From Takakia lepidozioides (lineage: Eukaryota > Plantae > Bryophyta), in contig CM060732.1 in NCBI GenBank assembly GCA_030704615.1, positions 60,388,001 through 60,452,000 on the forward strand: a stretch of DNA of 64,000 nt, given 5' to 3'. The position numbers were made by a program, and so were the translations under genes. Under the pieces are notes generated by a model that saw only the letters and a program-made list of their open reading frames with translations, did not search any database and had not been told where the DNA came from. This document shows, piece after piece, positions 14,206-59,000 of this stretch (position 1 is its first letter; every line of letters begins with the position of its first letter).

Positions 14206-15969
<1,764 letters not shown>

Positions 15970-23010: not shown

Positions 23011-23319
23011 CTATGCTGCAACCTCTTGAGCAGTACCCCCTTCCTGCTCAGTCAATGACAAGGCCTCATCCTGCCCCATCATCTCATCATTGAGAACCTC
23101 CTCAACCCGAGAAGAATCCCCAACCTCATCCATCACAACTGCCTTGGCTGCCAACTCCCTCTGAACCTCGAGCACCTCCCACGTGTGCCATGGATGTCTA
23201 CACCCCGTGGTCCTCACCGGCTCGCCCCCACTTGCTGCCTGTACCGTCTCGGTAGGCAGAGAGACCATGAAGGGGAGTGCACTCCGCACTCTACGTTGCT
23301 CAGCCATAGCCAAGCTGAT

Positions 23320-24262: not shown

Positions 24263-24689
24263 TCATCCGGCCGCTGCCACACAAGAGGTGTGGTATCCAA
24301 TGGCGACAACTGAGGTTTCCCTGGTGCAATCACCGCACTCTCCTCCTCTCCTAACGGTACAAAAGCTTCTACCCAAGCTTGTTGCACCCGTCTATCAGCA
24401 GCTTGCTGCAAATCCTTGCTCGTACCCCACAATGGAGTGTGAGCAACCATGGCAGGCAACTCCACCGTACCATGCATGTCATCCTGCTCTGCTGGAGGTG
24501 GCACATCCTCTGCATGGGCATTGCCTTCCAGCAACTCTCCAGGCCAACTAACTGCAGCTGTGAAGGCAGGTAGTGTTGGTATCTTGCCCCGTTGGGCAGC
24601 TGCAATACCCCCAATGAATGTCACAGGGAGCTGTGCACGGCGACCATCCCCTGACTGCCATCCAGGCCTGTAGAATGCTGACTCCTCCC

Positions 24690-25010
24690 AGAAGTCCAGG
24701 GTGAAGCCCATGGGGTATAACACTGCCCCACCAACGAGGACATCGTAAGAGACCGCGTCTGTCACAATGGCCTTGGCTCGCATCACTGAGCCATCTACAG
24801 GATGATCCGGCTGCAGTCTAATAGCCAACTGATGCCATGTCATGCCCCGCACCTGCTCTGATCCTCCCAGAGATGTCTGTATCTGGAAAGGACAAGGCTC
24901 CATATCCGCCTCCATAAGGCCCAAACCTGCAATAGCAGCTCTGCCCAACATCAGTGGCTGGGCTCCCGAGTCCAACAAGACCCGCAGTGGCCGGTACTTC
25001 TTGCTTGCCG
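24690..25010 (-). CDS. Retroviral-type aspartic protease
   Basis: RVLLDSGAQPLMLG ... SYDVLVGGAVL in ORF 24190-25494. Confidence 0.9.
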
Positions 25011-25494
25011 GTCCACTCAAAGTGAAAATGCCTCCCTGGTTGTCTAACAAGACAACTCCAGGTGTCACCGTGGCGCGCTCAAAGGCTGGCCTAGCTGGCA
25101 GCTCCGTCAATCTGGCAGCTGCAGCTTGCCAGGGCGCTACCGTGGCAGTCTTGACCCTCAAATCCGAGGATCCCTCTGCCACTACACCTTCCACTAACTC
25201 CGCAGAAGATGAAGTGACCTCCCCACTCTCACAGAGTTTTGCTGCGATTCTGAACACTACTGCAGCTAGTCTCTCACTCCCTCGTTTCGCAATCATGTTT
25301 GCCGAGACAGTTGGGCTTGACACAGAGTGGCTTGCCACCCACAACACCCCCCCCCTGCTGCCCCTAGCCTTTGGGTCAGGTGTCAGTGCTGCAACGTGTA
25401 GCATCTCCCCGATGGCATAGTTCACCTCTCTGCAACCTCGTGGCCTCTGAACTCGTGCTGCTCCTCGAGTCACGGCTGTCAGGGCAGACGCCAC

Positions 25495-26550
25495 GCTGCT
25501 CTAGTGGTAGTGCTTCTCCGCACATGAATCCCATGCCTCCCATATCTCTCCCTCATGAGCAGGAGGTGACCATCATCCCGCCTGGGAGCCGGTAAACCCC
25601 AACCTAACCGCCTGGCTATTCCTTCAGCTAGCCTCTGCTCTAGCTGCTGAACCGTATTTTGCCATGCCTTGGTCAACAAAACCGGACCTCCGCGTCCTTG
25701 GCCATGGGAGCTTGCCCTTGGCCTGCACCTCGTGCCCTACCACTCGTCCTCTTTGGTCTGGTCACCTAGCGCCCCCCCCCCGCCACCATTGTTCACCTTG
25801 GAACTGGCCTGGGCGGCAACTCAGGATGCAAGTCATAACACTGGGCATCTCCATGGCCCCATACTTTGCCACAATGCCCACATTGCACTGTGGCAGGCTG
25901 TGCTTGTGCCGTCCTTTTGCCACTCTCTAGGGCAATCTCCCTTGACATGGGGTCCCTCCCATGTCCAACATATCACCCCTGGTTGCTGTTGGCCATGCAA
26001 AAGATGCCACGGGCCTCTGCACCTGAGGTCCCCTGTAAGCTCCATGGAACTTGGGCTGGGCAACCTTGCCCCCCTGTACCACGCTGTGGGGCATCCCCTT
26101 GTGCCTGTGGGCTGACAGCTGTGCCCCGTTGCGGCATGTCCTTATGTCCTTGCCAAATCCAATTTAACAAGAACAACGCGCTCCTCCACCACCATGTTGA
26201 GCTCAATCATCCGCTCAGGCCAGCAAAACACATCTGCTAATGTGGGTTGGGCTGCTTGTAACAGGGTTGCATCTCGCACCCTTCTCTTGAGCTCCTTGTC
26301 CAGAATTCCATACCAAAACTAGATTGCCTGAACTTCAGTAACCCTTGGGTCACACTTATCAAGCGCTCAACGATGTAACGCCTCTCTCAGGCTCTCACTG
26401 GTTTTGTGCTGGAAGTCTTGCAAACTTCGCAGCTTCTCTGTCCGTACCCTTGGTAGTTCCTCCGCACTCCTGGAAGAACTCCACCACCGGTTGAATCTAG
26501 GCACATGTGTTGTAGTCGTGGCAGCGAGAGTAGTAGCCCACCTTTTGAAC
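25495..26550 (-). pseudogene. gag: Gag C-terminal part with degenerate zinc knuckle(s), frameshifted (inside the inverted block)
   Basis: FWYGILDKELKRRVRDA..PTLADVF; ICWTWEGPHVKGDCP knuckle remnant; several single-base indels. Confidence 0.7.
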
Positions 26551-35377: not shown

Positions 35378-37102
<1,725 letters not shown>

Positions 37103-38567
37103 TTTCTAGATTCTTCAAGTATCGATTGCCAAAACTGGCCTCCGATTCGACTCAGTTCCAACGCAGGAGTTTTTTCAATTAAAGTTCTCTGTCAATCGCT
37201 GTTTCATTAAGGGCGCTCACTAAACCTCATAAGGACCTCAGACAGAACTTAACCCTCTGATAGCTTCGATGATGAGCTGATCAGATCTGTTCGAAGTACG
37301 AACAAAAGGACCTACTACCGTCTGAAGTAACTGCTCAGACGAATTCAAGCATACAGAAAGGAATGTCGCTGTGTAATTGACAATCATCCCCTTCTTAACA
37401 CGTAGCGTTAGGCTTCACTTCCTGCTTCCTGGCATCTCCCTTATATATCGTTCCCAGGGGCTTCTGGGTGCCTTCTGAAGGTAGCTGCCAGCCTGGGCTT
37501 GATCTGTCGTAAGCTGTTGAGCCTGGTCAACGGCTTCATCCTCTTACCCACCGCTTCATCAAGAGGGTGTAGAAAAAAGGCTCAAAAGCGACAATATAGA
37601 TTGCGAGATGCTCTCAAAGCCTCGCACGTTTTCGGCAGTAAGCGCACCGCTCTCTCTTGCCAAAATAGAAACCTTGGTCTCCTATACTCCCGTGAGGAAG
37701 AATCGCCATAGCTACTCCGCTGGGCATGCTGCTTATCACGGGACTCTTACAGATTTTTACGAGTACCCAAAAACCCACCTCCTCCAACGCTCATCTATGT
37801 ATTCACATCTTACTATCGAGCACGTCAACTGTCCATGAGATCGAAATGACATATCTTTGCATATGTGGGATGCCAGCTACTGCAGTGGAAGGAGGTTGGT
37901 CCAGTGTATGAAACTATTCTAAGGATTTACAAAAGATTGACACACTATCATTCAGGGGCCAATTGTAGAGAGCCTCTTTCCCTTGCAGAACTCAGCTCAC
38001 TTGCTGGTAGAACAGAGACAAGGAGTGCCCGCTCAAAGGGTTGGCTCTCACCCAGTTCGAAACTACATGGACACAAAGACAATGTTGTGCATGTTCCCAT
38101 CTGAGACTTCCCAAGACATATGTTTGCAAGTACTGGATATTGCCAAAGTTACTTCATGAAAAGTTGTGTGAGGAGAGCATGAATTTACGTTGATAATATT
38201 TTTGGAGCAGCCTTGATATTGTTGTTCGGACTTAGTATTAATCTTCTCTCCTCCCCAACATTTTGTCCCTTGTGACATTCGAGATGCCTTGTTTGTTTGT
38301 TCATTCTTGCCATTATTTCTACATACGAAGGCCACCCCATTTTGACTGGTCTTTCTCATGAACTTGAAAACCATAACATCAACTATGTTTTGGTTTGAAA
38401 AATAAGAATAGTTTTTGCTTAAAACTTTGTTTGAAGTGTAGTTTCCTAAATATCTGTTGTACTCTCAATTTGAAAGGTAGAATATATGTCCAAACATGGT
38501 TCCCTTGCATATATATATATATATTTCCCTTGAATTTCCTTTGCATAAATGCAAAAGTGGTTGAGAC

Positions 38568-39264
38568 CAGTGGTGGACTGGTATCACAAAAATATGAGAC
38601 CAAACTGGTCCTGGTATCGTAATGGCCCATATTTCCCAAGGCTGGTATGGTCCTGGTATTGGGGTGGGGTAGGGTATAGGAGGGGTATCAATAACGTAAA
38701 TTTATGGATATATAGCTGTATCGTGTCAATATTTGGCTTTTTCCATCTCATATTGTCTAACGTGAATATTGCCCGGGTAGGTATATAGAATATTCATATA
38801 TTCAAAGAAAATTTTCAATAACCTGAAAAAACAACTGACCTTCACACTCAAATCACAATTACAACACGATGCACACATACAAAACCAGAATTGAGCTCAC
38901 CCACATTGCACATGGAGTACCCAAAAAATGTCATAAAATGTTATGCTCATATAATGGACTGCCACTACGCCCATCATTGAAGCAGCCACCCATGAATTCC
39001 CTTGCCCTAACTCCACACATATACCTACTGTACCGTTTGGAGGCTCACATAGCAGCAGTACCGGTACCAACAGCAATCTGTCCATAGCAATACCAGACAA
39101 GTATGGTATACACCGCAATATGGAGCAAGGTATGCATTGCCCCTAGTATGGTATGCCCCGGGTATTGGCCACCCTACCTACCTACAGGCGGGATATGGTC
39201 TTACCTACCTGGGTTGATATCAGTATTGATACCCAGGTTGGACCTATGTACGGCTCCAACACTG
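38568..39264. mobile_element. Non-autonomous hAT-like element (MITE), about 0.7 kb
   Basis: TIRs CAGTGGTGGA / TCCAACACTG. 8-bp TSD GTTGAGAC (38560-38567) vs GTTTAGAC (39265-39272). GGTAT/ATACC subterminal repeats. Confidence 0.75.
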
Positions 39265-39719
39265 GTTTAGACAATGTTGGGAATTATTTTATGAAAATGT
39301 GTCGCAAACTAGTGATATTGTACATATGTGATATTGTACTTCAGTAAGTGTATTTAAAAATTGTACAACTTGACCAAAGTAGCAAATTGTCTCCAGTTTT
39401 CAAATCTGAACTACTGTGGACCCAACTTTTAAAAAAGAGACAGTTGGGGTGGATGTCTGCCAAAGGCTCAAGCATCACTGGACAATTTCGTGGATTGAAG
39501 TAGATTTGTACTGGGAACGTTGAAGTTTCTCAAACAACAGCAAAGAGCAGAATCCTTGACAGTTTCGAACATTAGTGTACAATGTAGAGAATCTACAAGG
39601 CTGCGTAGCTCCAGATTGCAGTATCCCTGTCAGCCTCATTCATCAAGCTGTAAATATGTACTGCAATCGTGACTCATGGCCATGTATCCCGCATAGTGAG
39701 GCTGGCTCTAAATCAAGAT

Positions 39720-42700
39720 TCAAAAGTTCTGAACCTCCTTGGTTGGGCGATTTCGAGCCTGTATGTGGGGTAGAGCTGGTGGGCCGATCCATGATAAAAT
39801 CACAGGAAGAAGGACAAATCCATTTAAGAATGCCAGGACACCCATTATCGTGAACATTCCAAAATAGTACAGCCTGAATGCATGGTATCTGCACCAGAAG
39901 AGTAGAGATCAGTGATTGTCTGGGAAACGTTAGCACATCATCTAGTATCGTCAACTACTTGAAGAGAAGCAGCAATAAATCAAACACTTTAATCAAGGAG
40001 GACCTATGAGACAAGATGAGAGGGAGAGACAGGTGAATGTCAGGCAGAAAGCTTACTTCACAAAGATGAGAGGAAATGTTGCAATAAATTGAGTCCCAAA
40101 ACCATGTAGAAGAGGTTCTAAGGTCCACTCCAGAGCTTTTCCCACACGGAAGTTGCGGGTCCCGTCTACCACCAAGAAGGACCTTGCCAAGTATGTGAAC
40201 TCCGATGCCATACCGATCTGCAATTTGTAGTAGTACATATTGGCATTCAAAGTAAGTTCCACATATAAACCAGAGAACACCACCACCCTCATGCGTTGCT
40301 CTTATGTGCGGACAAATCCATATAGACAACATTTGCCCTTGCCTCTTTGGACAAATGAGACTCTAATGAGATGCTAAAGCTGCATGTACTTCATGACGTC
40401 CGAGGAAAGCTCAAAGAGCTTATGGGACAAGAGAAAGCAAGAAACAAGAAAGAGTGAAAGAGAGTGAAAGTGATGAGGAAAGAGGGGTAATGAAATGGTG
40501 CTTTAAGAAAGACTCGCGTTGCATGATACAAAGTGATTCAGGCTCAACAAATCAAATGCAGGAGTAATGCCATTGGCAGGTGATAGCAGAAGAACTCAAG
40601 CAGGGCAATGGGAGATCGCTTGTGCAACTTACAACAATGCCAAGATTAACAAGTGACAGAGCTGCCCGTTCCAAGCCGCAACATATGCATCCAATACAGC
40701 CAGCAAGTCAGGTTAATCTATGGTCAACAACAGTATATAGAGGTAATATCTGCACATCCACAGCATGCTTCATCCAATTCATATCAATCGATGGAAAAGA
40801 TAAAAGAGTAATCACAGCACTCCTTGAATTCCTTCCCAGACCACTAGATACAGTTTCGATCAAGGGGACCATATACAAAGCTTCAGCAAGAAAGGAAACT
40901 GCTGTGGTCCCATGAACATAAGATATATGGCATAGAATGTCACCATTTAGTTTGGCGCCAATGATATAGATGAAGCCATAGACTTCAAGGTCAACCATGA
41001 GCAAAACAATGGCAATGATGAAGGACATGGTGATGCTGAACTGGAAGACAAGCACTGCAATAAACACTCCCACTTTCCATGTACAAAATTTGAATATATT
41101 GTTAGTCATAACACGCAATAAAGAGCTCCGGGATTTTTCATACCCCACATCATCTCATGAACAGTAAAAAGGAAAAAGACCCTTCTGTTATATCTGCCTC
41201 TTCCAGATTCGAAGATTGTTAAGATGAATGATGAAACAAATACATGAGAAGTACTTGCCACACAGAGCCGTTACAACCTGTCAAATTATTTACGGCACAT
41301 AAACAACTGTTCCCAAAACAGTGAGGAATTTACAATACTTACCCAATGCCAGGCCAACCACCAGGTAGAGATCATGGTAGCTGTGTAGATATTGCTCAAA
41401 ATAGAGGAACGGGTAACCATACATGTATGCCACCTTCTGACCAAACTTTGTATTCAGGTCATCTACTGTCTGCCTTGTTGCTTTCATCATGGCCAGATTG
41501 GGTTGAACTTCAGCGCCCAAGTGACCTGCAAACAGCTGGCATGATAGAAGAGGGAGAGTTTTAGGTACAAATAATGGCTTTCAGCAAAAGAAACTGGAGT
41601 TTGAAATAACAAGGAAGGTCTGTTCAACAATTGTTGCACCACTTCTCAAGGGGAAGTGTCATAGTGGTTATTGCCTGAAGAGTACTCACCACCGTCTTTG
41701 AGGCCCCAATTCGGAAGTTGGGATTCGGCCTGTATCCTGGAGCTCCAGGGTCCACAAAGCAGCTCAAATGCTCTCGGGATAAGGCATCCTCACAGTACAG
41801 ATCCTGCTGGGACACTATACCTGAGAAACAGCAGAAAAGAAACAGAAATCAGTTCTCTCTAATTGTGCAACTCTGGTCCCAATAAGTGGCCTTCTCTAAA
41901 GGCATACAAGTTTGCAAAGAACACAGTCTGTCATTACTAGCCGTCTCAGGTCACTTCCAAGTCAATCAGTCAGACTCTGCAGAATTGCAGTGATGAGAAA
42001 CATGTTGATGTGACTGGAGTAAAAATAAGAGGACATGATGTTTCAATAAACATGTTGCACGCTCCTAATCACTAGCATAATCCATCAACTAGTTGTGCTT
42101 ACCAAGAGGGGAAGACGACCATGGCTTTTCGTACGCATAGAAAGTTACATTGGGTGGCAGAGGCCAGCCTACTCCCAGAGACAAATTGTTCCAGAGGTAC
42201 ATGTTACCAAGAAACGAGGTTTCTAACACCTGGCCCACCCTCAATGCGTTAGTTGGCTGTGGAATGAATTAGTGAGAAAAACCACGCCAAGTGAGAGGAG
42301 AAACAACGTTTGGTCTGATGTAGTGATTTAGACAAAATATAAGTCTAGATGTTCCAATGGAAGGTTTTTCTCTGCTCTCACGCGCAATATCCAATGTCAG
42401 GATGTCTACAAAGTGTAGCAAATTTTATTCCGTCCAGATGATAAACTTTTATAGCTATTTGGCAAGCTTTACAAGAGAAAAAGCTCGGATCGCTGATGTG
42501 AAATCCAGGCTGCTGGGATCCTGAACCTGTGGGGAAGATATAGCTGATACGAGGTCATAGGCCTTGAATCACTGTCATGACTATTGGCTGTTAGGACTAA
42601 CCAGGAACCAAAGAATTGATCAGTCAACCATATTCCCTCCCTCCTGTCTCACAGATCATACCCTGGGTTGTGCGGGTGCCCACTGCGTCAAATTCTGAAG

Positions 42701-45700
42701 AGCCTCAAAAACCTCTACCAAATTGCTCTGCTGACTGGGCATGTCAATGTCACGCGTCACGATCCACTGAAATTACACGCCACATACGAGATGTCAATAG
42801 AAAATACAGAAGCAGACCTGCCAATAGAAACACTTCAAAACAGATGGAAAAGCATCTCTGACACAAGTGGAGATACTTACCACATCATAATTCAGGAACC
42901 TGTCCTCTGTAACTACTGCAAAGGTGTTTTGGTATGACCCTGTCAAATACACAACAACCAATCCTTTCAGTTGTTTCCTAACATATCCTCTCCTTCCCTG
43001 TCACCCCGTTGATCTGGACCTTTCACATAAAAGTTTCGTTCGTTCTTTCTCTTGACCCATAAGTTCTTTGAGCTTTCCTCGGATGTAATAAAGCACCATT
43101 CATTTCATTTCTTGCTGTTTCTTTAGCCCAATTACGAGCAGTAGTTGCTTTTGGGCTGCTTTTTTACTTTCGTTTCATCTCCTCTCTCTTGCTTTTTCCA
43201 ATTTTGTCCCATAAGCTCTTTGACCTTTCCGCAGACTTTATGAAGTACCATTTCATTTCATTTCTTATCAGAAGTCCACTAAGACCATTTCTTTTATCTT
43301 ATGAATCCAGATTCTAGACCGTCATAGACAGAAAGGTAACCAAAAGAATACCTGTCAATGTGACATCTGAAAGCCTGAGGCCATGGTCCACCTTTTTAAA
43401 GCCCAGGTATATCATGGACCCCAACAGCGCCGCAAACACCACAACCTGGATAAATCTTGACAAGGTCAAACATAGTACTAACTTCAATGAAAACTACAAC
43501 AAAGAACTAATATAGAACAAGAAAGACAGAAATGAATTGAAATGGAATGGAACTTTATAACATCCGCCGAAAGCTCAAAGAGCTTATGGGACAAAAGAAA
43601 AGAAAGAAACAAGAAAGAATAAAAGACAGAGAGAAGCCAGAAGCAGCCCAAAAGCAACTACAAGAAATGAATGATATGAAATGGTACTTTATAATGTCCG
43701 TGGAAAGCTCAAAGAGCTTATGGGACAAAATGGAAAAATAAACATGAGAGTAGACAAAACCAGAGCCAAAAAAAAAACACATTATCATGTCCACGGAAAA
43801 GGACAATTGAAAGAAACAAATAGGAAACAAGAAATGAAATGAAATGGTGCTTTATAACGACGAGGAGAATCAAAGAGAAGGAGAAAGTTTTTAGGGAGAA
43901 AGGTTTTCTTCCACCCACCAAACACTTTTGTGGTCAACATACTGCCCAGAGAATACATGCAAAATCTGCACTTTGATGGTTTGGGCTTTACCACAGTGAC
44001 TTTAAAAACGTTGTTCTCGAAGAGAGGGGCATAATACTTGGCCACCCAGCGAGAAACTGCAGAGCTGCCCGTGCTTTCTTGGAAGCCTACATCTGTGACA
44101 TCCACTGTAGAGCGTATTTGCTCCTTGACTGGTGATGTGCCTGCATAAGTCCCTGTGATTGCATTTCCCATGCACAACTACAGTTCTCAACACTTGACCT
44201 GAGCGCAACTTCATTGTCCAGCCTAGATCTTCATTCCTTTGTCACTCACGAAATCCATAAATGGTGAACAGCTTGGTATGAATGCCTCTTCCTCAGACCA
44301 CACCACCCCATGTGGAGGCCATCACCTTTGAAATTAATAATATGATGTGATGAGGATGTCACCAAACTTTCAAAGGGTGCAAAAGCTTGTAAAGCTGGTA
44401 ACAAGTTTAGGGTGATAACAACATACCTTCAGGAGCGGGTCCCTTTTTCCGCATTCCAAAAATTAACCATAAGTTGGGGTCATTCAAATGAGCCTGAAGA
44501 TAAAAAAACGCTGGTCAGATTATCAAAATTCAAGTGCTGCGGCTTGGGGGGCGTGAGGGAACTTAGACACCCTCAGTTGTATATCATCATACCCAACATG
44601 TACATGGAGTAATCTCAAAGTACAAATGAACGTTAAGGAGGGAAAGCAAGGCGGTTATTAGGAGGCCAAAAAGCCCATGGGGGAGAGAAAGAAATATCTT
44701 ATACCTTGACTCTTCGGGCATCAATGGCCATGACAGGCATGAAGATAAGGAGCATCCCAAGTGTATGGATGGTGGCTGTGAGGCCCATTTGCCAACAAAA
44801 CCATTGCGCTATTGGCATTGGATTCTGCCAAATCACAGTCCAGTTAGTACACAACATTCAGACATGTTATGCACAAAATCATTCAGAACAAGTCTGAGTT
44901 CGCGAGGCATTGCATTTCGACCACTAGAGGTTTTGTTTGTGATGTATCCGTGAACATTCCATACACTTTTTCATCTTCCAGTGGACATAATGGAGTTCCT
45001 TCAGGAAATACTGGTGTCACTTTGGAGATTCCTCATCCTTAGCAGAGCGTCCAGCCACTAGGACCCACAGAGCATAACAGCCGCTATGGGGCCTCTGGTT
45101 TTGTCCAGGCCCAATCGATGTTAATGATTACTTCCTTTACCTATCTCTCACGGAGGTCTTCCGTTATGAGGATCAGAAATGCTTGGCAGCTTGCCTGCTG
45201 CACAAAGCCTTGACTCTTAGACAATCCCTTGAGCGTTGCTTTTGGGCTGCTTACAGCCCCTCTCTTGTTTGTCTTCATCTTGTCGCTTCAGCTCATGAGC
45301 TTCCCCCGGACATCACAAAGTACCATTTCATTTCATTTCGTTTCTGTCTGTTTTCCTTCTTCTGTCTTTCCCCAGCACAATGCAAGTGCATCACCAGCTT
45401 CACTTCCATTTGGTTTGGATTCAAGAAAGTCTGTAAGACCACCTAGAAACTGCTAGTCAGAATGCTCCGAACTTAAGATAGGCAGCAGTAAAGGCTCTAC
45501 TAAGGTCCAACAAGCTCACCAAAGAAGAGATAAAGAAGGCCGCCAAGACAGAAAAAGTGGTGAGAACAACTGAGGGTCCAGCCAGGGCCAACGCAAGTCG
45601 CATTTCACGTTCAGGCACAGTGTCACCGGGAGTGCTCAAAGCCTGGAGTGTTGGGTCCTCTAGAAAGTTGCGCAGTATGCTAACCAGTACAAAGACATCA

Positions 45701-48700
45701 TCAATACCTGCATCAGAGGTCATCAGCTTAGCACAGGTTACAATTATCTTAAGAGAATCTATGGTGGACAAGTTATGCAGAAGTAATCAAATGGAACAAA
45801 GAGTTTTAGCCACTTGAATTGAGCTGGCAGCTTACCTTTCTGACAACAAAGGCACTGGATACATTTGAGCTGATACTTCTTAATAGACCTTGCAACAAAT
45901 GTTTGAAATTGTTTCACTCAATTCAAAGCTACTGCAAATCTAACTTGCACATAACACCTTTGTTCAGTTCGGAGTTTATTTCAACCCTCTTAGATGTTAC
46001 CAGAAAGAACACCTGAGAAAAGAGTTGTGACTTGAGATTACCAAGGCCAAGCGCAAGGAATGGAACAACAGAGCCTGCCAAAGGAGAGAAAGAAATGCCG
46101 CAAAATGCAGTGATACCAAAGCCGGCCACGACAGCAAAAGTTACTGTAGCCATGCCCTGCATCAACCAAATTGGATAAATTAACACTTCTCCCTTCATTC
46201 TGATAGTAGCAGAACAAGACCAACATTTGTTGGGGTCACGAAGGAAGAAGGGATTGAAGCTTACTGTTAGTGCAAGCCAAGTGTGTGAATGCACAGGGTC
46301 ACGAACGTCAACAAATACAATAAAAGCGTAAGTGGATGTCAGGACAACGCTGAGGATGATTTGCCAGAGTGGAGCTTTACTGGCATCTGAAATAATATCC
46401 TGTGAGGATTTCTGCACCCCACAAAGGACAGCAACAGTCTTCTCACTTCAGTACGTAAATGTGGAAGGTTCCTCCTCACCAGGGCACTGCATCTCAAGAT
46501 GATACTATGTTTCATTGGTGACCTTGCCTGATGACCTCGTGCCTAGGCACAAAGCTCATGGGCACCCACTTCCACCACCACCTCTGTGACTGATAATATA
46601 GCAACAAAGGGTTGGTAAATTTACGGGGCATCCCATTATTTCCACCCACAAAAATGGAGGGAGACCAAGATAGCTTCATGCAGAGCATCTAAGAGACCTT
46701 CTAAATGCAGAGTCTCATGAAATAGCAAACTAATCATGCATTGAATATTCTGCTGCCTGAAGCCATGCCAAGGCAGACCACAAGATGAAGAGAGTGAAGT
46801 CCACTTGCGTGTAAAAGTCAAAGATGAAGAAAGTATAATCTACTTGAATGTAGAATTCAAGCACCGGTTCTTAGCCACCTTCACATAAGAGATAGGAGTA
46901 CCACAACCATAACATCCTCCCTGACCAAACCTGTAGGGTACACTACTCACCCACATATTGAACTCCAATTGAAGGTCAGCAAATTTCTCGCCTGGCCCAA
47001 AGGAGGTGTTGGCTGTGTGCTGCCACATAGGTTCAAGAAAGTTGATCATCACGTCCTCCCAGTCCTTAACCAGGTGTTCCAGAGCTATTGTATCATAATT
47101 AGTTCCAAGTTTAGAGTTGATGTACTCAACAAACAGTGGGTGGCCTTGGTGATAGTTGTTGGACCCCCACCGAATCCCTCCTAGCTGCGAACAATACCAA
47201 CACCAAGACCAAGTTAGATTGGATGACCTTTCTCACAATCACCATGTCCATGTCCCTCATAAAGGCTTGCACATTAGTCCCAACTGTCGTTTCTCTTTGA
47301 GCTTTCCGCGGACGTTATAAAGTACCATTTCATGTCATTTCTTGTCCTCAGTAAAATAAGAGCTATCTTGCAGATATATGGAGGCACGGATTGGATTCCA
47401 TCGTTCGAGTTGAGGAAATTGCTTAAGTGTGCCATTTAGTGACAAAAACTACATGCATTCACATTTCTTCACCCCCTGCAACCTCTTCCCCCTCCTGCTT
47501 CTGTCAGGTGCATGGGCTTTTGCCTCAGGATGTGTGAACCTGCCCCATATGACTACTCTCTCTAACTATTACACAATAACTCAATGGCCACAAGGCTACG
47601 GCAAACAACGTCTTATGAATACATTCTCTCTAACTATTACAATATGTTTGCTTTTAGTTGTAGTGCAAGAGAATGAGAGATTAAAAGCATTATTGGGCTC
47701 TGTACCTTGGTGATGTTGGTCCCAGAGGCATCGTACTCCATACTACCAAAGGACGTCAATACGGGTATGTGTACTCCAAACCAAGTTACACAACACGGCA
47801 GCTTACCCCCAATGCATTGCACAGCCTGCATTCCAGTACGCAGTTGATCAGGTGAACACAAGAACAAATTCAAATCAACTGGATCCCACAGAGTTCAAAC
47901 CCAAACACCACAAGTAGATCCAGAGGAAGAGCAAAAGACAGATTTGAATAAAGTAAGATATAAGGAGCATCAGACATCCACAGGAAGACCAAATAGCTTA
48001 TGCAAAACAAACAAGCAATAGAAAACCAGGCCTATATCACTTCTCAACGTTTCGTCGAGAAAGCTAAGCTGCCGAGCATTTCTGGTCTTCATAGCTAAGC
48101 ACGCAGTGGTCAGTAAAAGCACACCCACTTGAGCATCTGCAGGGTCCTTGTTCATATGACGTCCATTTTCAATAGCATCATTGAAGTGATCTAGTATCTG
48201 CACTCCCACCACAGGAACCACCAACCTCAGTGTTAACGATACTTACCATAGACCTGCACACGCACCCATACAGACAGGCCTGGATGATGCCAGACATTTG
48301 TTGAGAAAAAAAAACACCATAGTGCAGAGAAGAGTGTAATGGGTTTTGCTTCCATCCCACTACAGTCAAGGCGTTCTTACCTCTTGGTTTGAAGTCATTT
48401 TGGAGTAGGGTTTGCGCCAGCGATAACCCCAGGTATAAGCCAGCTTCATAAAAGACTGAACTCCATTCAAAATCTGTTTGTGCCAACCATGCACCAGAAT
48501 AATGAGAACGTCTGATTCCCAGAAAAATAATGTTCATCAATACTTCTTTCACGCACTCAGCGCAACTCTGTAAATGGAAGCACATTGGGGTGAGAATCAT
48601 ACAACTGGAATATCCAGCACCTAGCACAAATGAGCCAAAAACGGGATACACCTATGGTACTAAATCTTCACTCCCTGTCATTAAGGGTGTAGTGTTTCTC

Positions 48701-51058
48701 ACTTGAGGGATAGTCGTATTGGGTAGATTGTTCGCTGCAAATGTTTTGGTCAGATTAGCCTCGAGCAAATTAAAACAGTGAACAGGGACATTTTTCATGT
48801 TTGCAAAGGCCACTATGAGATCTATTATTGACAAGCCCGTAGCGTTCGCAACATCAGGCACCGGGTTTTCCAACTGTTTGAGCGCTTCTGGGTAGTCAAA
48901 ATCTCCTCCTTCTTTGAAACAGTCCATGGGCGTGAGCTTTGTGCAGGGAAATTTGTCAATGCCCCAACCTTGAGGCAGGCCAATGGATGTATTCACCCTA
49001 CCCTCATAAGTCCAGAAGATAGAACACTCGGATAGGAACTGTAACCCCCACGATCCCCAATTCCCATCCACAAGCGGGTTCACCCCTGGCCTGAGAGCGA
49101 CAGGAACCAACGGCCTCTCACAGAAATCAGACTGCCACAAGACAGATACTTGGAGTAAGTAAATACACATGACATGGTGGCATAGGCAACAAGAAAATAC
49201 ATATTCTAAACCTCTCCTTCTATCCACTTCCCTCACCAGAGAGTGATCCTCTTCAGGACGATCAAGAACATTGTCCCTGCACCTCTGCTCACCAACTTTC
49301 AAAATCTTGAGGCTGAGCCTAAAGCCCTGGCCCTCTTGGGTCTAATTGCTGGGCACCTCACACACAGCAAGTTGATGTTTGTGTGAAGGACTTTCTAGAG
49401 GATATCTGGAGAAACCTGAACTAATTGTCTTTATCAAGGTAAGTCACACTACCGGAGTGAGCCCCTCACAAAGATAGTTTCAGATCCCTTTTGTTCCACC
49501 TAAACTGGGCGTGGGGTCTATGGCCACAAGGCTACAGCAAACAACGTCTTATGAGTACATTCTATCCACTTCCCTCTCCTCTGCTCTCTCAAACATTATA
49601 CAAAACACCAAATTTTTGGCTTGCTGCCACCCACAAATGTTGTAGGAGCAGGTCAGGTCATGCCATGCTTCCCAGTCATCTGAGACCCAATGGTTCTTAG
49701 TCACTACAATTGCACTCTAATCTGTTCTGCTGTGTAGATCGCAATAGGTGCCAATATGCAGAACCCAATTGGAAGGAACAGACTTGCTGATGATTAGTTA
49801 CCACCGCATTATAGTGACCTGCTGCTTTCTTGAAAATACAATTATGTATTCGAACCAACACACAGGAAAGGCCGATAAACCTTACATTGCCAAGATTGTA
49901 TGTTGTTTTCCCAACAGTTTTTGGCATGCTCAGACTGTCATACAGGGGTGCAACAGCACTTGTCAAGGCGTCCATGGATCTTTTCAGATCAATTTGATCA
50001 TCTGCCGATTTCAACGACGTTACTGTGACTGACTCCTTCCGGGGTATACCCCCAAATCTGCCAAATCAGACATCACCGCATGAGCAAAAGCACAGACATA
50101 GGAAAACCCTTCGGACTGTTCCAGTTGGATGATCTAAGGCTTTCCACTGTCTGATGCAAACAGATACTAGAAGCCAAAGCCAACATGGGCACACATTGAG
50201 TCTCCATTGAATATGCCATAATAGCGCTTTAGTTCGGAGTGCCCTGAAATGAGACAATGCAGAGCCAAAAGAAGGCACACAGAGAAGGACGGCAATGGAA
50301 CAGGGACCTCAGCTGATTTACTTAAGTTCACCTCCTAAGTTGATGGACGTTTTAACTCAGCCTTGTAACAAACATCAATTTTCCCCAAACAGCAAGTTGG
50401 GGAAGCATGACAGATGTATTACTGGATGCAGCATATCCACAGCCTACTGATTAAGTCCCTCTCAACTGGCCGTTGTTTGCTTGACAGACCTGGATTCAGA
50501 AATATGAACAACTGAAACAAGTTACCACATAGCCCAGCCTGAAGTTCGGGCACCCACCGTTCATTGAAGAAGATCCGCTCTTCTACAACCCGTGAATTGT
50601 GCTCCACCCATAGCCTTTCCAAGTCTGTCTCTTTCTTTCCTTTGAGGATACCCACTGAGAGACCAGCCAGAAGCACGAGTCCAATTCTGAAAAGCCAAAA
50701 GAAATCAGAAAATTAAAATTATTTGGAAGTGGCAGGACATACGGCCTAATTCCACTTGCCAGGAGTCCAGGAATTAAGAGGCAAATTACACCAGGGATTT
50801 AAAAACCCTGCAGTTGGACCAATATGCTCCTGCTGAGCAGATACGTAAATTGACTGTCATAATCTACTCGACTGGCCCAGTTCTGCTTATGACTCATTGG
50901 CCTGTCACACAAGGGTGGGACAGAGTTGAGAGAGTACAAGGAAGCCTTACACAAGAGGAATCAATGGTTTGCGGGCAACAAAGGAGCCATAGCCAGAAAA
51001 GACATCATTCATAGCCAAGTGATATGACCCCAGCAGCCGCCGGAATCTGCTAACAACC
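39720..51058 (-). CDS. Patched-like RND/sterol-sensing-domain membrane protein, about 20 or more exons; 5' end unresolved (5' UTR probably near 53280)
   Basis: Exon peptides ETDLERLWVEHNSRV, FPCTKLTPMDCFKEG, VVPFLALGLGIDDVFVL, AGPSVVLTT, MPVMAIDARR, KVDHGLRLSDV, GYPFLYFEQYL, GMASEFTYLARSFL..RVGKALE..EPLLHG, FLNGFVLLPVILSWIGP occur in collinear order. Stop TGA at 39720-39722. Confidence 0.9.
43051..43875. repeat. Cluster of five short LINE 3'-tail fragments (same family as 7472-8700): two on +, three on -
   Basis: TTGTCCCATAAGCTCTTTGAGCTTTCC..GACGTTATAAAGCACCATTTCATTTC-like copies at about 43051 and 43201 (+) and about 43535, 43670 and 43830 (-). Further copies at about 40390 (-), 45150-45340 (+) and 47290 (+). 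Confidence 0.85.
45150..45340 (+). mobile_element. Severely 5'-truncated copy of the RTE-X-like LINE in an intron
   Basis: GTCTTCCGTTATGAGGATCAGAAATGCTTGGCAGC... matches 8507-8585 and ends in an ATTTC tail. Confidence 0.8.
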
Positions 51059-53237
51059 TGTACACCTCCAAATCACAGGACTGTATCCATCAGGCTAGGG
51101 TGGACATCAACCAGCCTGCAATAGAGGGAATCAAACTACCCTTGGCAAGTAACTTTTAGGAGTACAGATGTTGGGATTCTGTTTCCTACTGAGTTACAAG
51201 GAGAGTGTCAGAGCGGGGCCCTGATTTCAACCTGCAAATCTTCTAAAGGACATGTTGCATCATCCAGGCTGCATTGTCTTCAACCTTTCAAGATGGTGGG
51301 CATACACGCATTTCATTGAAATGGAAATTAGAAGCTCTGTTCAGACACACTAATCGGAGATATTCACCAATTATGCTTTTGAGCTGTGAGGAAGGTCTGA
51401 AAATGACGTTGTCTAGCAGATCATTTCTGTGTGGGCATCTGACTTATATTGCATGCAAGAAAAACACGTCATCCTTCTGAGCTTTCGCCCCCAGTGACAA
51501 CCCCCACCCACAAATTACGAATTCATCACTTTTTGAAGAAGCATTCTGACTAGGTACGCCCTTCATCTCACACTCAAATTTAAGATCGTGCTCTAACATA
51601 TTAACCTTGAAGAACTAAGTGTCGAGTTCCCATGCTGGATAATATTTTCCTCTTCCGAAGAAGGGGGAAGAAGAGGAAGAGAGGATACAGGGAACGACAC
51701 AAGCTTGAGAGCTGTTCGTCTTCCTTCCCTTAAAACCATACTACTCCAAGACTTCCATTTTGGAAAGATCAGAGAAGCAGTGTGACATGTGTGACGGGGA
51801 AATAAAGTGCTGGGTTGTCAAATCGATTACTCACCCCCATGGTTGAAGGAAGATATTCAACAGGATTTTTTGACACACCCGACGTTGAGCGAAGTTACAG
51901 ATGCATCTCCTGCTAGCACAAAAACAAGCAACAGAGATATCAAAACATGACCTTACTTCATGGCTCTACTTCTAGGAGGTAATAAACTATGTTCTTCCTT
52001 TCTCAATACTCCCCACTGTGAGCCCAACTCAATGACGGGTTCCATACAGGACCATTGGATGAGTTGTCTAATGCAGTCAAAAGTTTTAAGGTGCTGGTAT
52101 TGCCTATCTAAGGTGTGAAGTTCGACTTGGAACAATTCAGACAAAGCGGCCCAGTGCGAGGTCTTGACTGGGAAACGACATTAAAGATGATCCTTTTGAT
52201 TTTTCAAATCCGCAGTCTTGACGTGAGTACCAACAAGAGGGAGAGATGGAAAAGGCTATGGAGAGGGAACAAGGAGAGCACAGAGACATCATGACATTTG
52301 CACTGCAGCTTGCCCTTCCACACGAGAGTGAACTTCGATATCGGGACAACAATACCTTCACAAGCGCACTGCCAAAACTATACACATGCCAAAAGCCTTG
52401 TGGTTAGTGACCCTGCCTTCCAGAATAGGTCCTAGTTTCATGACCATGTCATCGATTAAAGTATCTTCTCTATCTCGTAACCATTTGCGAGGATGATCTG
52501 CACGATCTAATTGGCATACGACAGGCCCCCAAATGCATGACGCCTCTTACATTGTTCATTTCCTTCCTCAGCTTCAATGCCGAGCGGAAAAAAATTCAGA
52601 AGTGACTCCTCAACGCATAGACGAGCGCATAGATATGAGATTGAACAACTGCCGAGTACTTTCTTGGTATCATGAGATTATAGCACCGTGATAAACACTG
52701 GCACAAGCTGTAACCTCATCGTGCTGCTAGAGCTGCACGCATTAATGACACGAACTGGGAACAACTACTCATCAGCTCAAGCTCAATTGCGTAGTAAGCC
52801 ATCTTGAAGTATGACCTGGACGAAGAAGAGAGAAGAGAAAGCTCGGGTGCGATGAATAGACGTGCACATTTGACGAGGACATCTCATACCTATTACCGAC
52901 ATGCCCGCAAGAGATCCCAAAAAAGAATCAAAGTGATTTACAACTACAGTCGAGGCCCACCATCCAAGAGAGAGCTCGCAAGTTAAGCTGAATTCCTGTC
53001 TGTAAGTGAGTTGGGAAGAAGACTCCCACATTGCACTAAACTACGGCTAATATTGATGACAATCAATTGTACCTCAGATGCGAGACTTTCACTTCACAGT
53101 GCGATGCGTACACAAAACTTTAGCCTTGCTTAGAAACTGCGCAGTTTCATCTCTCTTGTAAAGTAGAGGCCGCCACCGCGGTATGAACAACTCTCTTCCT
53201 CAGGGACCCAAGCCAAGGATCACACAGTAGCAGTAGT

Positions 53238-53238
<1 letters not shown>

Positions 53239-53281
<43 letters not shown>
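53239..53281. repeat. (CT)n microsatellite, probably in the 5' region of the Patched-like gene
   Basis: About 21 CT units. Confidence 0.95.
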
Positions 53282-53284
<3 letters not shown>

Positions 53285-55774
53285 GAAACTGTCTCTCTCT
53301 GCGTTTATGGAATGTCAGCGCCGCAGCGTGCCCGCCTTCACTACATAATCCACAAAGGCTGTCCACATCCATGAATGTTACGCCCATCCATCATACCAAT
53401 TCAATGTAATCATCCAAACAGACAGCAGTTCGCTTTGTCATCGGTGAAGGTCCACGGATGGATGACTATCGGTTAACGAATTGGTTAGTAAACGGCTACT
53501 AACGACGTGCTAACATTATTCATCCATCCATGTACTGATAGTCATTTAACTTTTACTATTAAAGGTGGGTCACCTCTCCAGGAGCTAGTACAACACCCGA
53601 CCTACTGCCACCCAGCTGGTTATAGGTTCAAATCCTGGTCGCCGCGCTGGACTGCTAGGCCCTTCCGCGCCTTGCGTGTGCATCACAATGAGCTACCCAA
53701 AAAAAAGACCAGAATGGATGAATTCTGGATGAATTTAGGGGGGATTCTCCCCCCGTGAGTACTAAACGTATTATAAACGAATCCAGATTCCAGGGTAAGT
53801 AACGGGATTCGTGTTAAGGCCAATTATGAGCGACACAGAGTGGAAATAAATGTGATCGTGGAATCATTTACTGCTCACTTCCAATTCCAATCCAAAACCC
53901 TAAGTTTCGTCCAGATGGTGTGAAGACGGAAGCTTCAGTTGGATGGATGACCCGATTTGTCATATTTCGCACGCTAGTGGCTGGCCTCTGTCAGCATAAA
54001 TTCATCCGTCTGGACAGAAGTGAGTATTATGAACGACGGCTTGAGTTGCAGGCCTGGCAGGTTTGCCTACAAGCCTGTCATGTGCTGTCTGGAAGGCCGC
54101 ATTACTGTTCAACAAGCCTGAAGCAAGCTAAAGAAAGCTCTTTACGCTCTAGAGGCTCAAGAGGCTCAAGACCAGTCAAGAGGCTCGGCTAAAGAGGCAC
54201 CGTTTCTCTTGCTAGCTGATGAAGATGCCCCGTTTCTGGTGGGGCAGATTTAGAATAGATGAGGTCGGCGGCAGCAGTGGATTAGATCGGGCTGCGCCCA
54301 CAGTGGCTGATCACAAGGAGCATCATCAGTACTCCAATGATCATCTGTTGTCAAGAAGCCTGAAACTCTTCTTTCTCTGGCTTCTCAAAGGCCTAACTTA
54401 GGAGTCTCCCCAAATTTTAAGAATTTTCACCGTTGAGTTTGAGAGATTATATTATTTTAAAGTTTTTCTTTTCTCTATGATTCACTTTTTAGGCGATAAG
54501 CTCATGACTATCTAGTCTTTCGGTGTGTGGATATGGTGAATGAGGCCGAAATGGAATGCCGAGCGTATCATGGTATATTTAGTCCTGAGTCTACGCAGTG
54601 TAAGAGTAGATAGATAAGGTGGGTTGTCTGCCATTCAAGCCAACTTGTGCATTTGAATTTGCTACTACGGTACTTGTGGTCAAACAGTTGTCCTTTTTGG
54701 TTGAGAGTAAGTGACAGTGGTAATGGCTGTGTGGGGTAGGTCACCGCGAGTCAACATGGTGGACCTCGCTCCGATGTCGCTGAAGCCACCTGCAACCGGC
54801 AGCGTGGACCTCCTCTTATTCTTATACTTTTACCCCGTCACATACGGGATATGTTCTGATCTGATGAAGCTTTTGATACTGAACAGTGAATCCATGAATC
54901 TAGCTCAAGTTGGTAGTGCACTGAGAGCCACCTAGGTGATTTTGGGCTCAAATCTTGCTACCTATTTGTGTGGTATCATCTTCTCCGTTTCCTTTGGGCA
55001 AGTGCTAAACCAGCCTCCACAAAGAGCCTAGACCCTCTTCACTGGGACAATAAGAACTACATATCTCCTCTTCTCAACAGATGTAGATGCTGAAATTTCA
55101 GTTTAGTAGACACTCCATACGTTTATACTTAATCGTGGGGCCCATCATTGTGGGTTCATCTAGAGCATTCATGGCCCCTTGTCAAGTCACAAACTATCAC
55201 AAACTACCTCCATCCACAACATTCATGGCCCCTTGCCAATTCACAGTCACAATCTATCTCTCTCTGCAGGCAATCGCAATGTGGGCCCGCATGCAATGAT
55301 GCCCCTGTTTTCATTTTCTTCGTATGTTGGCTGGTAAGATAACGCTAGCATGCTTGAGCACACCGACACTCTAAATTTGTTACAGAAGGGTTGTAGATCT
55401 AAACTTGATGTCATGTATATAAACTGTATCATGAAAATATCATTGTATGAATGAATTAACATTTATCCAAAGGCAACACAGAATGGAGCATCCAATTTAT
55501 AAGTAAATTGTAGGGGAGCAGGATTAGTAGTGCAGTTTAACGAGGTAACAACTAGGCTAGTTTACTGTCTCCAGATCTTGTCAGAAACAGCAGTGGCCAA
55601 TCATTTAATGTACCCCTCTCATTTACGAGCGTTGAGGACTGAGCCGGACCCACAAGGTCAATAGTCATGATGTGCAGTAGAATTCAACAGGCAATAATAA
55701 CCATTCCAAAGTACTTGTTCAAGTGATGGATTCAAAACTCACATCATGTATACATTTAGAGCCTGAGTTCCATC

Positions 55775-56800
55775 GTGGCTGCCGACATGGGAACATGGAA
55801 ACCCCCCGTACAGAGCTTCATATCTGGCCTTCTTTTTTACTTCCAAACAAAAAAGGGTGCCATACAGAGATTTGTCTTTGTGCCAAGCGAGTGGGTGTAC
55901 TTTTGCTCAAAGTCTCCGGCAGCCCAATTCCCCCCTAAAGTCTATAAAGCATGGAGGGACAAGCTTTTGGATTCCTGTCCACTAGTGGAGTTGATGGATG
56001 GAGAGGAGCTCTTTAGTAAGAAATCCCATCAGCCACTTCTTATAAGCTTATCTTTTCTCTTGCATCGTTCAATGGAGGCTGCTATGGAGTTCCCACTGGC
56101 CTCAAACATGAGAAAGTGGAGGGGTCGGCCCTTCCTCTCTTGGTTTTTTTATCAACTCCACGGGGCCTGCTTAAAGAAGACCTGGCAGCGCCAGCCTAGC
56201 CCAGCACCTCACAAGGTAGAAGGTTCTCGCCAGCCTGGTCGTGGCACAGAAATTACAAAGGAAAAAACAGGCCAGGTCTTTACATTTATGTGCCATATGC
56301 TTGTTGATCCATCTAAGTTACACATCTCTCTTTGGAGATATCAATCCTCACGTACACTTGCAAAGCAGACCAGAAGAGCTGCTCAAATAAGTTTTAACTT
56401 ATCTCCCTGGTCCTTTGAATGGAAAGAAAAAGTTCAGACATGTAAAATCCTTTTGCAGTGAGCTTGTACAATACAATAGTGGCTCCCTTACAATGAAGCA
56501 CAAAAATGACCACAGAGTTCTACCGAAGTAACTCTACATCATGATTATCTACTAAAGCTGCAAGGGCAAGGAAATTTGCAACCAATCCGAAATCATCCCT
56601 TTTCCTTGGAAGTGATCTCCAATCTTTGACCTGTGTTTGTGTTGCCAGGCTAAATTTTGAGAAAACCCTCCACATGAGGGATAGCTCTCTGTGCAAGTTT
56701 GGTTTGTTGGCTCCTCCATCAAGAAAGAGAGACCAAGCATACATACTTTTCTTCTGATGTACCTTTCCCAAGTAAAACCTCCCTATGAAGAAGAAACAAG
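55775..56800 (+). mobile_element. Degraded L1-like LINE ORF2 C-terminal remnant
   Basis: Trp-rich 228-aa ORF followed by a zf-RVT-like remnant (SSLC.F......HTFF*CTF) at about 56680-56770. Confidence 0.4.
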
Positions 56801-57261: not shown

Positions 57262-59000
57262 TTAGTTGATTGTGCTGGTTTTCTTAGCGTTCCCGGTAAA
57301 TACCTTCTCAAGAAGAGAGAAAACATAAAGGGGATACTGTCCGGGATGGGGCATTTCAGTTTCATTTTTTCGAATAGTTTCCATACCAAACCCATGCTGA
57401 GAATATCCTGCCATCATTGCACTCCATGACACCACATTGCATTTGAGCCATATGGGTGAACACCCGATTAGCATCCTTCATGCTCCCACATTTGGCATAC
57501 AGGGTATTCTCCAGCATGACATCCGGTTCAATTCTGGATTTGATAATATCAGCATGGCTCTCTACCCTTTTCAAAGGCTTCAGTCGAACGAGACCCAATC
57601 AGGCATCACCCCTGACTGTATCATTTTCTCATAGATCTCCAAAGCCTCCCTACCATATCCATGGCGACTGTATCCTGCAATCATGGCGACCACATCTTGC
57701 GTAGCCAATTGTCAAAGACCCGACGTGCATCCTTCACACTGCCACAATTGGCACACGGAGAGAACACAAGTGAATGTGACATGGTCAGGTGTCACCCCTT
57801 CCCGAATCATTTGCTCATAGGTCTCCAAAGCCTCCCTACTAAATCCTTGCTTAGCATATCCTGTAATCATTGCATTCCAGGAGATCACACCTAGTTCAGC
57901 CATATCATTAAACACATCCTTCATGCTCCCACATTCGGCATACATGACAGCAAGAGCAGTCTCCAGAATGGCATCTGGCAATTCAAGCTTTGATGACATT
58001 GGACCTCTATACCCTCTTCCAGGGCTCCAAGGTCGGCACTTGCCTTCAACACAAACAAATGTGACCCGGTCAGGCAATGCCCCTTCCCGTGTCATTCACG
58101 CATACTTCCCCAAAGTCTCCCTACCATACCCATGCTGAGTGTATCCTGTGATGACGAAATCCTATGCGATCACATTTCACTGAGCCATATTGTCAAAACC
58201 TCTGAGTGCGTCCCTTACACTCCCACATTTTTCATACATGGCAACAAGGGCAGTCTCCAGAACAATGTCTGATGCAACTCCAGCTTTGATAGTGTCAGCA
58301 TGGACAGTTTTGCACTTTTCCAGGGCTCCTGAAAGGAAATGAATGTGATCTTGTTGGAAGCCACCCCCTGCCTCATCATTTGCTGGAGTTGCATCATAGA
58401 TCTCAAGGGCCGCCCTACCACAGCTCTGCTGGGCATATCCTGCAACCACTGTGTTCCATGACACAACATCATTTCGCTGGGCCATATTGTCAAACACTCG
58501 CCACGCACCCTTCACGTCCCCACATTTGGCATACATGGCAGCAAGGGCAGTCTCCAGAATGGTATCTGGACCATTGCAGCTTGCATAATACCTCTATGCC
58601 CTTTTCCAGGGCTCCTAGGTTGGCACACACCTTAAGAACACAGACGAATGTGAAACGATTGGGAGTTCTCCCTTCCCTTCTCATCTGATCATACATTTTG
58701 AACGCCTCCCTCCCAGAGTCATGCGTGGTATATCCTCCAATCCTCATATTCCATGTAAACATATCCTGTTGAGGCATACTTTCAAACACAATGCAAGCAC
58801 TGGCATAAACATATCTCGTTCATGAGGCATATTGTCAACCACAATTGAGAATCAACTATGCTTCCAAACTTGGCGTACATGTTGATCAGGGTGTTGAGTA
58901 GAGAGACATTTGGCTTAAATCCACCTTGTATAATGCGGGCATGCACCTGCTTTCATTCTGCCAGGCCCTTCATTTCGATGCACACCTGCAAGGGCGGGAA
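57262..59000 (-). pseudogene. PLS-class pentatricopeptide repeat pseudogene
   Basis: Repeated TAL..MYAKCG....A..VFD.M...DVVSWN.MI.GYAQ.G..REAL..Y.QM.REG..PD..TF.CVL units in alternating frames, with many frameshifts and deletions. Confidence 0.93.

Follow-up and report, generated by a model that had tools for sequence, protein, structure and literature searches.

A Patched-type gene of a non-animal subfamily in Takakia lepidozioides, predicted to encode an ion-coupled sterol transporter

A stretch of 64,000 nucleotides from Takakia lepidozioides (assembly GCA_030704615.1, contig CM060732.1, positions 60,388,001 to 60,452,000 of the forward strand; hereafter the window, in whose own numbering all positions are given) carries on its minus strand an intact Patched-type gene, which runs from the ATG at 51840 to the end of the stop codon at 39720. 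The gene is genuinely part of the plant genome; contamination is excluded. The Patched subfamily in which it falls is non-animal, lies outside NPC1 and is not sister to animal PTCH1. The reading we favour, with a probability of roughly 0.6, is that its product would act as an ion-coupled sterol transporter of the PTCH1-like pump type rather than as a Hedgehog receptor, and that the gene is of vertical origin.

Splice sites read from the sequence define 25 coding exons and 24 introns, all GT-AG, which together encode 1,117 aa without internal stops, and tblastn matches to four full-length plant homologs tile the locus from 51057 to about 39700. From high to low coordinates on the minus strand, the coding exons lie at 51840-51835, 51057-50951, 50686-50558, 50057-49886, 49131-48703, 48473-48381, 48197-48129, 47825-47706, 47184-46951, 46411-46265, 46156-46042, 45707-45520, 44824-44705, 44493-44427, 44152-43992, 43445-43352, 42939-42881, 42766-42662, 42229-42103, 41820-41690, 41535-41343, 41072-40944, 40661-40633, 40217-40057 and 39888-39720. 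Spliced contigs come from two runs of one organism (X1 and X2, from two studies and guessed to be RNA). Twelve coding junctions are present in contigs of both runs, and X1 adds 11 more together with the intron of the 5′ untranslated region (5′ UTR; joint 51909/53073). The assembly of the coding sequence from transcripts, which the first-pass annotation of the window had recommended, supports 23 of the 24 coding junctions; the remaining one (48473/48703) lies between two contigs. The many spliceosomal introns reported in that annotation are borne out. Its span of 39720-51058 covers the bulk of the coding sequence but misses the first coding exon, of only 6 nt (51840-51835), and the 5′ UTR exon (53073 to ~53265). 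The N-terminus that results from including this first exon is as long as those of the moss homologs.

At its 5′ end, the transcript comprises a UTR exon at 53073-53231 (-), from which the X1 contig continues about 34 nt further into a GA repeat (~53265), joined to the exon at 51835-51909 (-) in which the 5′ UTR ends and translation starts (ATG at 51840-51838). The spliced 5′ UTR carries in-frame stops ahead of this ATG. It also contains (53073-53300 plus 51841-51909, minus strand) two short in-frame upstream open reading frames, whose ATGs lie at -147 and -66; at its 5′ end the transcript carries a GA microsatellite. The last exon (39461-39888, -) encodes the twelfth transmembrane segment (TM12), a cytosolic tail of 29 aa without a PPxY motif and the stop codon (39722-39720), followed by the 3′ UTR. 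Contig pieces run unbroken through the stop codon in both X1 (39461-39888) and X2 (39000-39888), and the short tail is therefore real. An extra 3′ exon, considered as homologs have longer tails, is ruled out by the same pieces.

The end of TM1 and a first extracellular domain (ECD1) of about 400 aa are encoded between 46951 and 50686 (-); this region contains the Patched-type motif PC..TP.DCF.EG and the two subfamily motifs WG...FP and GY.WR. The sterol-sensing domain (SSD), TM2 to TM6, spans 44705-46411 (-) and is supported by PF12349 and PF02460 matches, both in exons (E 1.8e-5) and in the full-length Ceratodon homolog P0005 (E 3e-23, above the cut-off). Six Patched-type motifs had been claimed for the gene, and all are present. 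Five lie in single minus-strand frames, namely ETDLERLWVE (50631), PCTKLTPMDCF (48948), VDHGLRLSDV (43391), GYPFLYFEQY (from 41418) and NGFVLLPVILS (from 39824), while the sixth, PFLALGLGIDDVF, is interrupted by the intron 46041-45708 and becomes continuous in a spliced contig. For comparison, the first-pass annotation cited motifs of PTCH1 and NPC1, and these are likewise found in PDB alignments.

Phylogenetic placement rests on a FastTree tree of 153 rows, from which representatives shorter than 700 aa and most angiosperm NPC1 sequences were left out, and on a set cut by hand from it to 65 rows and 794 columns. The latter was analysed with IQ-TREE under LG+G4 and under LG+C20 with posterior mean site frequencies (PMSF). 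Nameless rows were labelled PTCH, NPC1 or PTR-like by their position and motifs. Under both models, NPC1 forms one clade (support of 100 in the Shimodaira-Hasegawa-like approximate likelihood ratio test, SH-aLRT) and the 50 Patched-type rows form another (100). In this second clade, animal-type PTCH (100) stands apart from a 34-row clade (99) that unites plants, red algae, a stramenopile and the choanoflagellate Salpingoeca, and the window protein groups with mosses (98-99). Approximately unbiased (AU) tests under LG+G4 reject a grouping of plants with animal PTCH (1e-69) and of plants with PTCH and its two sister rows (5e-5); a grouping of plants with the red algal clade, picked after seeing the tree, is not rejected (p 0.26). 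The earlier designation of the gene as PTCH-like thus holds for its Patched type, but not for a specific closeness to animal PTCH1, since these tests and the width of the non-animal subfamily speak against the latter. The phylogeny proposed at that stage was carried out with PTCH, NPC1 and PTR-like rows, and Dispatched (DISP) and HpnN were left out. As side observations on the tree, fern-type rows (P0018-P0024 and P0009-P0011) apparently represent two ancient paralogs, both branches being supported at 0.99-1.0 in FastTree, and two copies are likewise present in the Physcomitrium/Ceratodon group of mosses. P0026, P0061 and P0101 are divergent members of the non-animal Patched clade that have lost the acidic residues of TM4 (DD) and TM10 (E) alike, and are possibly non-pumping.

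The idea that the gene derives from NPC1 by loss of the N-terminal domain (NTD) draws some plausibility from short NPC1 forms without NTD described in some protists (PMC4990510) and from the structural comparison given below, in which PTCH1 and NPC1 score alike. It is refuted, as is animal contamination. An AU test that took in two short rows of the NPC1 type rejects a grouping of plants with NPC1 (p 2.7e-43). NPC1 is characterised by a GVDN motif, a Cys-rich NTD and PF22314; the window protein has GLGIDD (DD for DN), has none of these domains and falls in a separate clade, and both PF16414 (the Cys-rich N-terminal sterol-binding domain) and PF22314 are absent from the homolog P0005. The first 330 aa of Chara NPC1 contain 21 Cys, as compared with 5 in the first 300 aa of the window protein. 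When five plant NPC1 N-termini were searched against the window by tblastn, nothing better than E 0.17 was obtained; given also the in-frame stops before the ATG, no NPC1 NTD is hidden upstream. The two results named beforehand as fatal to a Patched-type assignment, a grouping with NPC1 and upstream exons for an NPC1 NTD, were both looked for, and neither was found. The families nevertheless have much in common: NPC1, NPC1L1, yeast Ncr1 and plant NPC1 resemble the Patched type in their SSD and overall fold (Z about 44), and sterol transport is a function common to both.

Contamination is countered by the gene's own affinities. The window protein is 68-70% identical to proteins of the Sphagnum cluster, Physcomitrium and Ceratodon, 59% to liverwort and Selaginella proteins, and 51-53% to rows of fern type. 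Its exons agree in size with those at Sphagnum-type loci (L008/L011), and against a Sphagnum-type transcript (L001) the nonsynonymous divergence dN is about 0.22 for a synonymous divergence dS of about 2.6, the latter being near saturation. Plant-type peroxidase and pentatricopeptide repeat (PPR) frames lie in its neighbourhood. The rejection of contamination in the first-pass annotation is upheld by these features.

Structural comparison was made with an AlphaFold model of P0005, which served as a proxy (70% identity to the window protein), built from a 24-row alignment (predicted local distance difference test, pLDDT, 78; predicted template modelling score, pTM, 0.73). The model predicts a pseudo-duplicated fold of 12 TM helices that carries two large extracellular domains, and 861-899 of its residues align with PTCH1 at 3.5-4.0 Å (VIA-align). 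The 12 best rows listed by Foldseek are all PTCH1, and a PDB sequence search with the homolog P0002 ranks 11 PTCH1 sequences (E 1e-53 to 1e-49) above NPC1 (1e-37); the lone SSD exon gives NPC1 matches at E 0.84, too weak to inform. Animal Patched (PTCH1/PTCH2 and Drosophila Ptc), which heads the PDB matches in both the sequence search and Foldseek, has in common with the window protein the 12-TM architecture of the resistance-nodulation-division (RND)/SSD type, two extracellular domains, the absence of an NTD, and the motifs GxxxDD in TM4, GxxxE in TM10, LWVE and PC...DCF.EG. They differ in ECD1 (about 400 aa in plants, about 310 in animal PTCH), in the second extracellular domain (ECD2; about 200 versus about 250 aa) and in the C-terminal tail, which measures 29-75 aa without PPxY in plants and about 290 aa in PTCH. 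More distant relatives, such as Dispatched, PTCHD/PTR, bacterial HpnN and MmpL, have a similar RND fold (Z 33-35 for DISP and MmpL; E 2e-14 for HpnN), but their similarity to the window protein is far lower.

In PTCH1, an acidic triad (D513, D514 and E1095) binds cations (PMC10446486), and its aspartates are required for sterol depletion (PMC8654371). The triad is kept in the window protein as D543-D544 in the TM4 GxxxDD motif (45697-45702, -; equivalent to D513/D514) and E1014 in the TM10 GxxxE motif (40200-40202, -; equivalent to E1095), and its conservation makes an ion-coupled sterol transporter likely. The TM4 DD is present in 23/23 plant rows and the TM10 E in 22/23, the exception being P0025, a shorter protein of 942 aa. 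If the protein works as its homolog PTCH1 does, D543, D544 and E1014 would bind a cation or proton, and the bound ion would drive a phytosterol through the SSD and the extracellular domains. Sterol would thereby be moved within or out of the membrane, and accessible sterol lowered in one leaflet. Because there is no NTD, the sterol would be taken from the membrane and not from an NPC2-type carrier. A long PPxY-bearing cytosolic tail or loop is a trait of Hedgehog receptors; among the tails compared, two fish-type rows have about 290 aa with PPxY and one invertebrate-type row has 107 aa with none. No Hedgehog ligand (the N-terminal Hedge part) or Smoothened is known in plants. As the plant proteins also lack the long PPxY tail, a homeostatic pump appears likelier than a morphogen receptor.

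The distribution of the gene was first assessed by a protein search in which scoring was limited to the 7,989 candidates with most words in common with the query; coverage of gymnosperms and hornworts is uncertain. It returned 54 hits: 22 of the plant Patched type, 29 with an NPC1 NTD, and three others (carp PTCH1 and two without name). Organism names were available for 17 of the 22 Patched-type hits, which come from mosses (Ceratodon, 2; Physcomitrium, 2; Sphagnum), liverworts (Marchantia; Riccia, 2; Calypogeia), lycophytes (Selaginella, Diphasiastrum) and ferns (Adiantum, 3; Ceratopteris; Pteridium, 2). The NPC1-type hits comprise 25 from named angiosperms, one from Chara braunii and three without name. 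All 25 named angiosperm hits among the candidates scored are therefore NPC1, none being Patched-type; for seed plants this means that the gene was not found in the search, which falls short of proof of absence. The expectation that it would be present in seed-free plants agrees with this pattern.

Beyond land plants, a HMMER search of 1.84 billion representatives retrieved, among the best 150 of 3,455 matches, many full-length relatives at ~30-36% identity that outscore animal PTCH-type rows by far. Twenty representatives, one of them plant-type, were looked up, and three gave names: Porphyridium purpureum and Bangiopsis, which are red algae, and Chrysoparadoxa australica, a stramenopile. A further member is Salpingoeca rosetta PTSG_05169, which the window protein matches at 361 bits; carp PTCH1 reaches 111 in its best stretch. 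These protist Patched-like proteins fall in the same clade as the plant ones (SH-aLRT 99) and have ECD1/ECD2 motifs, cysteines and the acidic triad in common with them; the WG...FP motif occurs in 21/23 plant, 25/46 protist-type and 0/12 animal-type rows. They differ in being only about 30% identical to plants, in the greatly enlarged ECD1 of choanoflagellate-type rows, and in TM10, where plants alone have a one-residue deletion after E1014 that removes a His kept in 37/46 protist-type rows. No functional study of any protist Patched-like protein was found. An alignment-based homolog search added no algal members, although its blanks are weak as it also missed its own protist input rows, and the ESM Atlas, where the matches were confined to big clusters of animal Patched/PTR proteins and weak leads to NPC1_MLD, is uninformative on range.

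This distribution invites the proposal, already hinted at in the first-pass annotation, that the gene was kept for the sperm of land plants, where it would set flagellar or sperm-membrane sterol just as PTCH1 acts in the cilium, and disappeared together with swimming sperm. The land-plant range fits: 17/17 named plant members come from swimming-sperm lineages, to be set beside the 25/25 angiosperm hits that are NPC1, and ciliary cholesterol is acted on by PTCH1 (PMC8654371). Yet Porphyridium and Bangiopsis carry the subfamily. Red algae are not known to bear flagella at any stage, and an obligate link with sperm is weakened by their members. Chara braunii has swimming sperm and gave only NPC1. 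No hit was named for Ginkgo or a cycad, the coverage of both in the collection being uncertain, and two papers on ciliary profiling (PMC5850483, PMC3268115) do not mention Patched in their main text. A dedicated role in sperm is thus an unlikely explanation.

As for origin, the gene probably descends vertically from early eukaryotes, with later loss in flowering plants; vertical descent is favoured because the subfamily occurs in red algae and the family reaches across several eukaryote supergroups. Alternatively, the land-plant ancestor could have received the same transporter by horizontal transfer from a protist, choanoflagellate-like or otherwise, an origin we consider less likely. Plants join the Salpingoeca PTSG_05169 clade in both IQ-TREE runs (SH-aLRT 88 and 84), their stem is long (0.76-0.98), no full-length representative falls between 56% and 36% identity among the best 150 of 3,455 matches, and Chara braunii yielded only NPC1. 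Set against transfer are a support below 95, a position left unresolved by FastTree, a grouping of plants with red algae that the AU test does not reject, and the presence of the subfamily in red algae; algal members may also hide among the nameless rows.

Several points weigh against an ion-coupled pump of vertical origin. VIA-align Z scores are tied for PTCH1 (44.1) and NPC1 (44.0), and only aligned length (861-899 versus 781-826) and root-mean-square deviation lean to PTCH1. The TM10 deletion with its missing His, together with a TM11 that lacks an Asp present in two fish-type PTCH rows, suggests that ion coupling may differ from that of PTCH1. The IQ-TREE runs were quick searches supported by SH-aLRT only, and, with DISP and HpnN outside the trees, the root rests on rows labelled PTR-like by position. 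The best trees place plants beside the Salpingoeca-containing group at only 84-88, a topology that fits transfer equally. An organism name was obtained for just 3 of the 20 protist-like representatives queried, and no named member from a green alga or charophyte was found, which counts against vertical descent.

One further proposal concerns a possible ligand. Proteins with a Hog domain, which resembles the C-terminal part of Hedgehog, are reported from Physcomitrella, Selaginella, red algae and choanoflagellates and were undetected in Arabidopsis and other higher plants (PMC2362128, also for the Hog features below). The Patched-type protein could be a receptor, or a regulated pump, for such secreted moss and lycophyte proteins, the two forming a Smoothened-free proto-Hedgehog pair. 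The published Hog range does roughly parallel that of the gene, and the Physcomitrella Hog protein has a signal peptide. In moss and red algal Hogs, however, the motif J cysteine is replaced and the N-termini are unrelated to Hedge; the extracellular domains of the plant proteins differ from those of animal PTCH in length and motifs; and parallel loss may reflect a shared loss of many ancient genes. Such a pairing is very improbable on this evidence. A broader version, in which Patched was a pan-eukaryotic sterol pump partnered with secreted Hog-domain proteins before animals, a Smoothened-free module that mosses, liverworts, lycophytes, ferns and red algae would have kept and flowering plants lost as a whole, is only slightly less doubtful.

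Several repeats and genes surround or interrupt the locus. The insertions of transposable elements noted earlier in the introns are present as short dispersed and inverted repeats, but no coding element occurs among the listed open reading frames of at least 60 aa, some of which were run against Pfam. Copies in both orientations lie, for example, at 40386-40452, 43039-43860, 45296-45344, 47293-47361, 47581-47630 and 49517-49566, with a 103-nt inverted pair at 43160-43262 and 43670-43772. They are very abundant in the RNA-like contigs (summed depth in thousands) and are probably similar to miniature inverted-repeat transposable elements or short interspersed nuclear elements; Rfam gave no match in 36000-56000, these repeats included. 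A peroxidase gene (PF00141; 35381-37105, -) lies directly downstream of the Patched-type gene and another at about 15532-15966 (+). Further frames are a lumazine-binding, riboflavin synthase-like one (11784-12485, -) and a PPR-repeat fragment (58180-58593, -). At 21952-25500 (-), a retrotransposon pol-like frame with two in-frame stops contains, in order, a protease-like motif, a C5 cytosine methyltransferase (DNMT; PF00145, E 6e-13) and a reverse transcriptase (E 5e-33), and resembles the DNMT-carrying Gypsy elements of Klebsormidium (PMC5890265). The main text of that paper has no match for moss or Physcomitrella, and the frame may be an unreported land-plant case of a DNMT-carrying Gypsy-like element.

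The origin of Patched is usually discussed with reference to animals, choanoflagellates and bacterial HpnN (PMC2698682, whose main text mentions neither plants nor moss). No description of a plant Patched gene was found in the full texts searched, subscription journals and most supplements being outside that scope. A term search of PMC2362128, PMC4054682, PMC4990510, PMC2784329 and bioRxiv 153437 gave none, and the supplement of PMC4990510 has no match for Physcomitrella, Selaginella or Chlamydomonas. A family survey elsewhere may cover these genes, whose sequences are already on record under automatic labels, such as 'protein patched homolog 2' in Selaginella and 'Protein patched-like 1' in Porphyridium. 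The family is thus well known, some members already bear the name, and the function given here is predicted; the gene is real and apparently an unstudied non-animal variant. For plant biology it represents a candidate sterol transporter, apparently lost on the way to flowering plants. Should the Patched-plus-Hog module exist, moss knockouts would reveal a pre-Hedgehog role of Patched. More generally, in Physcomitrium (with its two copies), Marchantia and Ceratopteris, where the Patched-type protein is strongly conserved, the proposed ancestral role as a lipid-homeostasis pump can be tested by knockout in organisms with no Hedgehog pathway.

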